From a virus (lineage: Duplodnaviria; Heunggongvirae; Uroviricota; Caudoviricetes): DNA of 27,850 nucleotides. Location of the stretch: positions 1-27,850 of the IMG/VR virus record IMGVR_UViG_2734482779_000004. One strand, given 5' to 3'. Shown here piece after piece: positions 21,536 to 22,346 of the stretch. The translations under genes and the position numbers were made by a program. Below the pieces are notes generated by a model. It searched no databases. It had not been told where the DNA came from and saw only the letters and a list, made by a program, of their open reading frames with translations. Position 1 is the stretch's first letter, and the number at the start of each line of letters is the position of its first letter.

Positions 21536-21859
21536 ATGGATGCACAAACACGCCGCCGCGAACGTCGCGCAGAGAAACAGGCTCAATGGAAAGCAGCAAA
21601 TCCCCTGTTGGTTGGGGTAAGCGCAAAACCAGTTAACCGCCCTATTCTCTCGCTGAATCGCAAACCGAAATCACGAGTAGAAAGCGCACTGAATCCGATA
21701 GACCTTACGGTGCTGGCTGAATACCACGAACAGATTGAAAGCAACCTGCAACGTATTGAGCGCAAGAATCAGCGCACATGGTACAGCAAGCCTGGCGAAC
21801 GCGGCATAACATGCAGAGGACGCCAGAAAATTAAAGGTAAATCTATATCACTTATTTAG
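21536..21859 (+). CDS. N: Antiterminator N
   Basis: 107 aa from the internal ATG (AGGAG 8 nt upstream): [43 protein letters not shown]..., essentially lambda N with the arginine-rich motif. Confidence 0.95.
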
Positions 21860-22346
21860 AAAATGCAGATTTAGGGAACAGATAGGAGGCGTTACACCTA
21901 TGGCATCTCATCCTATGGTTAGAAGGTGGTGCAAATCCTTCGTATTGAAGTATGGATTTCACAGAAGATTCATAGCATTGAGCGCAAAGATAGTGCATTG
22001 GCTGACCGGTATTTGCCGATTTTTTGAGACGATAAACCACCGTAGCAACAGTAGGTGTATACATCTCATAGTTTTTCTTTTCCTCTTCCCACTTAGAAGC
22101 TCGATTTATCTTTTCTTCAAGCTCAATAATCTTATCCTTAGAAATCATCAAAAGCTCATTAAGTGACATTTGCTGCTGTTGGGCATCCATGAGCTTATCG
22201 ACAAGTTCGTATGTTTTTTCTTTTACTGAGTAGTCTATTTGCATTTTCTGGATTTCCTTTACTGCGCCAACAGCACTCATCAGAGCACCTCCGGCACCAG
22301 AAACTGCATCTGTAATCCTACTTATTATTCCTTTTTCATCAGACAT
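21852..22346 (-). CDS. Hypothetical coiled-coil / C-terminal zinc-ribbon protein, antisense to the pL operon
   Basis: 164 aa from the ATG at 22346 (the track ORF starts at a GTG 9 nt upstream). Predicted helical/coiled-coil N-terminal two thirds, C-terminal CAQC...16 aa...CHRC motif, no TM segment. Its 3' end overlaps the N stop by 8 nt. Confidence 0.55.

Follow-up and report, generated by a model that had tools for sequence, protein, structure and literature searches.

A prophage allele of the antiphage protein Rip1 in the sieB slot of the lambdoid pL operon, behind a sieB-type promoter and a sas-like antisense RNA module

The gene at 21852-22346 of the DNA studied here was very probably rip1, in the form of a Y96 allele of the Rip1 of phage HK446, and this was the best explanation of the evidence as a whole. 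The DNA, called the window below, is a stretch of 27,850 nucleotides from a virus of the Caudoviricetes (IMG/VR record IMGVR_UViG_2734482779_000004). On sequence identity the gene is already known: it differs by one residue from a protein whose structure has been solved and whose mechanism has been published. The features of the region were as follows:

21265-21293, plus strand: pL-like promoter (TTGACT, 17-nt spacer, TACTAT), from a promoter scan and homology to lambda pL, nutL and N
21536-21859, plus strand: N, lambda-type antiterminator gene, stop codon TAG at 21857-21859, convergent with rip1
21852-22346, minus strand: rip1 coding sequence, 164 codons plus stop, ATG at 22346 and TAA at 21852-21854
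22347-22372, minus strand: predicted rip1 leader of 26 nt, ACCCCTACAGTAAGAGAGTGATTTAT, with the Shine-Dalgarno-like AAGAGAG
near 22372, minus strand: predicted rip1 transcription start, transferred by alignment from P22
22379-22409, minus strand: putative rip1 promoter, with a -35-like TGTACC at 22409-22404 and a -10 TAAAAT at 22384-22379, homologous to the P22 sieB promoter
22335-22461, plus strand (pL direction): homologue of P22 sas, with ends set by homology
22647-22781, plus strand: cIII, which follows in the pL operon in the direction of N, at the far end of the rip1 upstream region

The reading frame was examined together with its homologues. The mechanical list of open reading frames contained a longer version of 167 aa, with a GTG start at 22355, three codons further upstream. 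In the alignment of 20 close homologues, however, the start at ATG 22346 (MSDEKG...) was common to all, in agreement with the 164-aa frame on the opposite strand described in the initial annotation. The tail-to-tail arrangement with N reported there was also found, with 3' ends overlapping by 8 nt (21852-21859, TTATTTAG), and the upstream region of about 300 bp measured exactly 300 bp between the rip1 start and the cIII start. The assignment of N was based on the pL-N region, which was 87.6% identical to that of lambda, and on the annotations of HK446 and 720R6. When 1.84 billion cluster representatives were searched with a profile, 2962 clusters at 50% identity matched with E ≤ 1e-3, and 1387 of them reached E ≤ 1e-10; therefore, the frame is a real gene and no chance ORF. 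Its GC content was 39%, compared with 47% for the whole window, as expected of an acquired accessory gene.

The identity of the protein was obtained from the PDB. Profile and single-sequence searches each gave one strong match, entry 9oox, "ring interacting pore 1 (Rip1)". The Rip1 chain of this entry (12 chains, 164 aa, E = 1e-105) shared 163 of its 164 residues with the window protein, and the sole substitution was Y96 in the window versus H96 in HK446 Rip1. The entry, released on 2026-02-04, is titled [quoted passage not shown]. Moreover, a Foldseek search with an AlphaFold2 model of the window protein returned 9oox as the top match (E = 2e-17, TM 0.85 on the target). Homology was also detected to DMS3-25 of Pseudomonas, with 30% identity and E = 7e-26. 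In the genome of HK446, gp37 was 99.4% identical and occupied the same place, overlapping N. The structure and the mechanism of Rip1 are reportedly the work of Patel, McCarthy, Taylor et al. (Nature 2026).

No name for the protein came from the family databases. Scans against Pfam, NCBIfam and PADLOC-DB v2.0.0 (2023) gave insignificant matches only; the best PADLOC match, PDC-M53B, had E = 0.019, in a database that predates Rip1. In PHROGs, the protein belonged to phrog_1244 (E = 4e-53), which is labelled "unknown function", and its relatives in public sources, RefSeq included, were all named "hypothetical protein". The protein had been called uncharacterised and had been left outside any family in the initial annotation; both statements gave way to the Rip1 match. 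The guess of a prophage exclusion or defence gene, which had been made from the expression logic, proved right, since the protein is a published prophage antiphage defence. Of the checks proposed with that guess, Pfam and PADLOC were insignificant, and structure prediction with Foldseek led to 9oox.

The AlphaFold2 model, built with 20 homologues, had a mean pLDDT of 69 and consisted of two helices (residues 7-34 and 39-90) and, after them, a beta-rich C-terminal domain; residues 1-20 were of low confidence (pLDDT < 50). The model superposed on the 9oox chains, with the N-terminal amphipathic helix and the C-terminal domain of Rip1. Residues 7-30 were rich in Gly, Ala and Ser, with a mean hydrophobicity of 0.3-0.4 and a hydrophobic moment of 0.3-0.4. 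The C-terminal domain was a beta/zinc ribbon with the pattern CxxC...CxxC, and the four cysteines noted earlier (C121, C124, C148 and C151, CAQC...CHRC) were invariant in the 20 close homologues and in 40 distant homologues with 24-53% identity. As modelled, the anatomy of the window protein (residues 7-30, long helix, Cys4 beta domain) matches that of the published Rip1. The earlier description of the protein as soluble held in that sequence prediction gave no transmembrane segment; in the literature, however, triggering leads to membrane insertion of the N-terminal helix.

The mechanism of Rip1 is summarised in a 2026 review (PMC13434031), and Rip1 is also mentioned in a conference report (PMC12908700) and in PMC13601566. 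In these secondary accounts, Rip1 is a single-protein abortive-infection defence encoded by prophages, and the protein is not toxic alone. [quoted passage not shown] Around an 11-mer small-terminase ring, Rip1 assembled into a 12-mer ring, which touched it with the C-terminal halves of its subunits; the N-terminal part was an amphipathic helix. The complex released dye from liposomes, and cells were perforated and died before phage maturation.

By the review's account, a prophage produces Rip1 constitutively, and the monomer does no harm. Late in a superinfection, ring-shaped packaging proteins of the invader serve as the template, namely the small terminase in E. coli phages such as T6 and the portal in Pseudomonas phages. 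The C-terminal domains of Rip1 dock around the ring to form a 12-mer, and the N-terminal amphipathic helices, thereby brought together, open a pore in the inner membrane. This permeabilises the cell before progeny mature, which amounts to abortive infection. Ring triggering, pore formation and protection are thus reported for Rip1, and by likeness they would hold for the Y96 allele as well.

The packaging genes of the prophage itself were also located in the window:

9186-9626, minus strand: small terminase, PHROG 309, with a C-terminus like that of Sf6 gene 1
7777-9189, minus strand: large terminase
5645-7783, minus strand: P22-like portal

A PDB search with the small terminase of the window matched only the C-terminus of the Sf6 gene 1 protein, not the partner in 9oox. 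Rip1 responds to rings like those of the small terminase and the portal of the prophage, which raises the question of how self-triggering is avoided on induction.

The position of rip1 was compared with that of lambda sieB. The window matched the lambda pL-nutL-N region at 21299-21859, to the last base of N. The following segment, 21860-22361, had no lambda counterpart and replaced the coding sequence of lambda sieB, which itself lies tail-to-tail with N; the match resumed at 22362-22447 with the 86 nt directly upstream of lambda sieB. By this alignment, rip1 is an exact cassette replacement of the sieB coding sequence, and an antisense gene after N is the usual lambdoid arrangement, with a variable slot. 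Accordingly, the earlier remark that the gene breaks a co-directional operon was true for the window, but lambda and P22 usually carry sieB in the same place and orientation. The homology to P22 and lambda broke off no more than a few nucleotides from the start codon, which marks the start codon region as the exchange boundary. Beyond the module, window 22452-22623 resembled a lambda pL operon devoid of orf28, ral and ea10; only short intergenic stretches from the flanks of these genes were left, joined directly to cIII, and a terminator-like hairpin lay just before cIII at 22595-22614 on the plus strand.

The slot between N and cIII/kil was surveyed in related phages, as had been proposed, and was found to be variable, with contents that differed between Louie, HK620 and HK629, and lambda and P22. 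In phage Louie, cI, N, cIII and kil were about 99% identical to those of the window, and the slot held three other, co-directional genes. The backbone that carries rip1 in the window is assigned by homology to an HK620/P22-like lambdoid prophage. Among 5426 complete E. coli genomes, the rip1 allele was found in 96 (1.8%), almost always overlapping N, and it was at least 99% conserved in 92 of the 96. All 100 E. coli copies were chromosomal, in a prophage context, and are still annotated as hypothetical. Homologues in prophages of Proteus mirabilis (45% identity) and Pantoea dispersa (63% identity) had the same antisense position, with an N-like gene and a CI-type repressor nearby. The homologues in Proteus, Pantoea and Pseudomonas phages were likewise antisense in the prophage. 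In the window, the antisense position and the sieB-type promoter homologue point to a prophage-encoded gene predicted to be transcribed independently of the lytic operon.

The shared locus raised the alternative that the gene encodes a SieB-type superinfection exclusion protein, the family usual in the lambda/P22 slot. The slot, the orientation, the promoter and the antisense RNA were all as for sieB, and HK620 hkaP, in the same slot, was annotated as a "putative superinfection exclusion protein" already in 2001. The organisation of the SieB locus (tail-to-tail position with N or gene 24, sieB promoter and sas RNA) was present in the window, which is a likeness of slot and module and not membership of the protein family. 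However, BLASTP gave no similarity of Rip1-type proteins to lambda or P22 SieB, and the SieB N-termini were hydrophobic and membrane-like by eye, whereas Rip1 had no predicted transmembrane segment. Furthermore, Rip1 matched another solved protein, 9oox. The reading as SieB was thus very unlikely, and membership of the SieB family was refuted by the lack of a Pfam, PHROG or BLASTP link. Rip1 is a functional analogue of SieB and no member of its family; both are abortive-type exclusion systems of prophages, and the two proteins are unrelated. The slot and the orientation of SieB/Esc/sas in P22 and lambda are shared with rip1, and the promoter and the antisense RNA are homologous. In contrast, SieB has an internal Esc product, and none was evident in Rip1: M35 was preceded by AAGGA but was not conserved in the Proteus/Serratia group.

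The hkaP protein and HK629_042 were in fact relatives of Rip1. Both have 164 aa and lie in the same slot, behind a promoter module that was 99% identical, and they matched the Rip1 family with E = 8e-34 in the profile search and with 27% identity (E = 3e-13) in BLASTP. They formed a very divergent subfamily, which lacks the N-terminal MSDEKG...GAGG segment of Rip1.

As a further explanation, the protein might be a nucleic-acid-binding zinc-ribbon regulator that acts on the pL operon or on lysogeny, with a housekeeping rather than a defence role. The C-terminal CxxC...CxxC pattern, with its weak match to Pfam Zn_ribbon_4 (E = 0.087), and the position of the gene within the immunity/early-regulation region would fit such a protein. 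It was, however, highly improbable: the gene was dispensable and patchy, as its 1.8% share of the E. coli genomes indicates, it was absent from near-identical backbones, it was replaced behind the same promoter by sieB or by unrelated genes, and the solved complex shows the protein bound to a terminase ring. Equally improbable was an inactive remnant in which only the antisense RNA and promoter module matters, as might be argued from the better conservation of the non-coding module than of the cargo across genera, because the ORF was full length, 99% identical to the functional HK446 protein, intact at every invariant residue and conserved to at least 99% in nearly all of the E. coli genomes that carry it.

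The expression of rip1 was considered from its upstream region, which was 100% identical to that of HK446 over 106 nt. On the homologous sequence, the P22 RefSeq record places the experimentally mapped sieB promoter at 29690-29720 and the sieB RNA start site at 29727. A simple consensus promoter scan of the window missed the sieB-type promoter, which has a weak -35. From the homology to P22, it can be inferred that rip1 is expressed in the lysogen from the sieB-type promoter. In the opposite direction, the arrangement of pL, nutL and N predicts that N-antiterminated pL transcripts run antisense through rip1.

The upstream region also contained the homologue of P22 sas. In P22, sas is a 127-nt RNA obtained by small-RNA sequencing (PMC13397905, Table 2). 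It mapped to the P22 sieB upstream region, with its 5' end complementary to the sieB start codon. Of 131 columns in the alignment of the window segment with P22 sas, 98 were identical; in the 3' core the count was 57 of 58. By construction, the sas homologue has its complement in codons 1-4, the ribosome-binding site, the leader and the promoter of rip1. When the window, lambda sieB, an E. coli myovirus, Proteus and Pantoea were compared, about 100 nt before the start codon were far better conserved than the proteins. This module was present in 143 phage records. Its sequence pattern was TACCCCTACAGCGAGAA-N(20-30)-CCCCTACA, and a direct repeat within it, ACCCCTACAG, overlapped the -35 region and the transcription start. 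An Rfam search of 21000-23000 gave no relevant family.

The structure of the sas-like RNA was analysed by a covariation test on 13 distinct variants of the module from E. coli, Salmonella, Proteus, Pantoea, Photorhabdus, Yersinia, Moellerella, Sodalis and Symbiopectobacterium. The RNAalifold consensus for the alignment was poor, and a named four-helix structure was used for the test. In this structure, 82.5% of the cells were paired, compared with 30-49% when the partners were slid by 1-3 columns. Nine of the 22 pairs were changed on both sides, a value that none of 500 shuffles reached, and U-G pairs were present on the sas strand. The compensatory changes in the helix AACCAC/GUGGUU came from two related sequences only and may count as few independent events. 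This helix interleaved with GCCUG/CAGGC, possibly as a pseudoknot or as alternative structures. The results are consistent with a sas-like RNA of three to four conserved helices. The window segment folded alone was unremarkable (z = -1.2), and no promoter upstream of the predicted 5' end was conserved.

In P22, according to reviews, sas RNA from the superinfecting or lytic phage switches the translation of sieB from SieB to the inhibitor Esc and spares the phage its own exclusion. Because of this precedent, a similar silencing of rip1 was proposed. On induction, or on infection by a related phage, transcripts in the pL direction or the sas-like RNA would pair with the rip1 leader and start codon. 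Such pairing would shut off new Rip1 synthesis during lytic growth and would help to keep the terminase and portal rings of the phage from setting off its defence. By analogy with P22, we infer that the sas-like RNA, or plain N-antiterminated pL transcription, may silence rip1 in lytic growth. Such silencing would be a candidate for how rip1 is opposed on induction, as the initial annotation had predicted. The missing conservation of a promoter for the sas-like RNA, the sieB-type promoter missed by the simple scan, the z value of the fold and the missing conservation of an Esc-like internal start argue against self-immunity through sas.

The cargo behind the module was then compared by a genome-wide scan for a 17-nt core. 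Most matches were chance matches in unrelated phyla, and the full element was present in at least about 15 loci among the matches listed, several of them lambda DNA contamination in unrelated assemblies. Among these listed matches, the full element was followed by SieB in lambda, P22 and Yersinia pekkanenii, by HK446-type Rip1 in E. coli phages, Proteus, Pantoea and Photorhabdus luminescens, by HK620-type Rip1, in Moellerella by a 184-aa protein whose N-terminus is hydrophobic, and in Photorhabdus tasmaniensis by an unrelated 166-aa protein. It is conceivable, although we hold it somewhat less probable than its opposite, that the sieB-promoter/sas module of about 100 nt is a portable cassette whose abortive-infection cargo is swapped at the start codon, and that in lambdoid phages with Rip1 the sas-like RNA, produced only in lytic growth, provides self-immunity through a block on Rip1 translation. 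Eight short contigs (L068, L076, L078, L086, L122, L123, L125 and L126) carried sequence identical to the lambda sieB region. These lambda-identical contigs occurred in assemblies of Pseudoxanthomonas, Nocardioides, Lacrimispora, Shewanella, Chromatium, Vibrio, Paenibacillus and Photobacterium, and they were most likely lambda DNA contamination.

Compared with other systems, HK446 Rip1 had the same length and the same tail-to-tail position with N as the window Rip1, but the HK446 backbone is that of a siphovirus of the Hendrixvirinae, whereas the window has an HK620/P22-like podovirus module set. The homologues in Casadabanvirus prophages of Pseudomonas (DMS3-25, D3112 orf25, JBD30 and relatives), with the 30% identity given above for DMS3-25, had the same four cysteines. 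They lie on the minus strand between two terminase genes, antisense inside the lytic operon, and according to PMC13434031 their trigger is the portal rather than the small terminase. Another prophage defence, Tab of Pseudomonas phage JBD26, is a protein of 83 aa that blocks tail assembly via the tape measure protein, with self-immunity provided by anti-Tab (PMC10884400). Like Rip1, Tab is encoded on the minus strand of a prophage, has its own promoter and acts late, on virion assembly. In JBD26, it fills the terminase-gene slot that is used by Rip1 homologues in sister phages. Tab was ruled out as a relative of the window protein, to which it is unrelated, and so was the unrelated TerI of Listeria.

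Three other reading frames were noted in the window:

19063-19707, minus strand: T5orf172/MUG113-domain protein of 214 aa, between cII and the replication genes
24203-24670, plus strand: HNH_3 endonuclease, between RecT (23308-24216) and a Gp157-family gene (24667-25149) and overlapping both
13535-13954, plus strand: ORF of 139 aa with a GTG start, on the strand opposite to the late-regulation region and just upstream of Q (12966-13484, minus strand)

In PADLOC, the 214-aa protein gave a match to the candidate defence PDC-S57 (E = 6e-29), and it also matched the T5orf172 domain of PD-Lambda-1; the related phage 720R6 had only a small hypothetical gene at this position. From these matches, the gene may be a second accessory, defence-like gene of the prophage. 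The HNH_3 gene was labelled a homing endonuclease in PADLOC, and the order RecT-HNH was also found in a Pantoea prophage. The 139-aa ORF had no match in Pfam, PHROG or PADLOC and may be spurious.

In this study, positional logic alone, namely an antisense gene with its own upstream region in the pL operon, rightly flagged a real defence gene. The rip1 of the window adds nothing new biologically, as a near-identical allele of a protein published in 2026. The added value lies in the context, with rip1 in the lambdoid sieB slot together with the sieB promoter and the sas antisense RNA. What may go beyond the literature is confined to the sieB-promoter/sas module, as a cargo-swapping cassette and a possible source of RNA-based self-immunity for Rip1. 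Looking behind the conserved module may be a simple route to further defence cargo. Moreover, the sieB slot with its inherited promoter and sas RNA suggests a testable route to self-immunity for Rip1. If true, self-immunity through the sas-like RNA would achieve by RNA what the proteins anti-Tab and Esc achieve.
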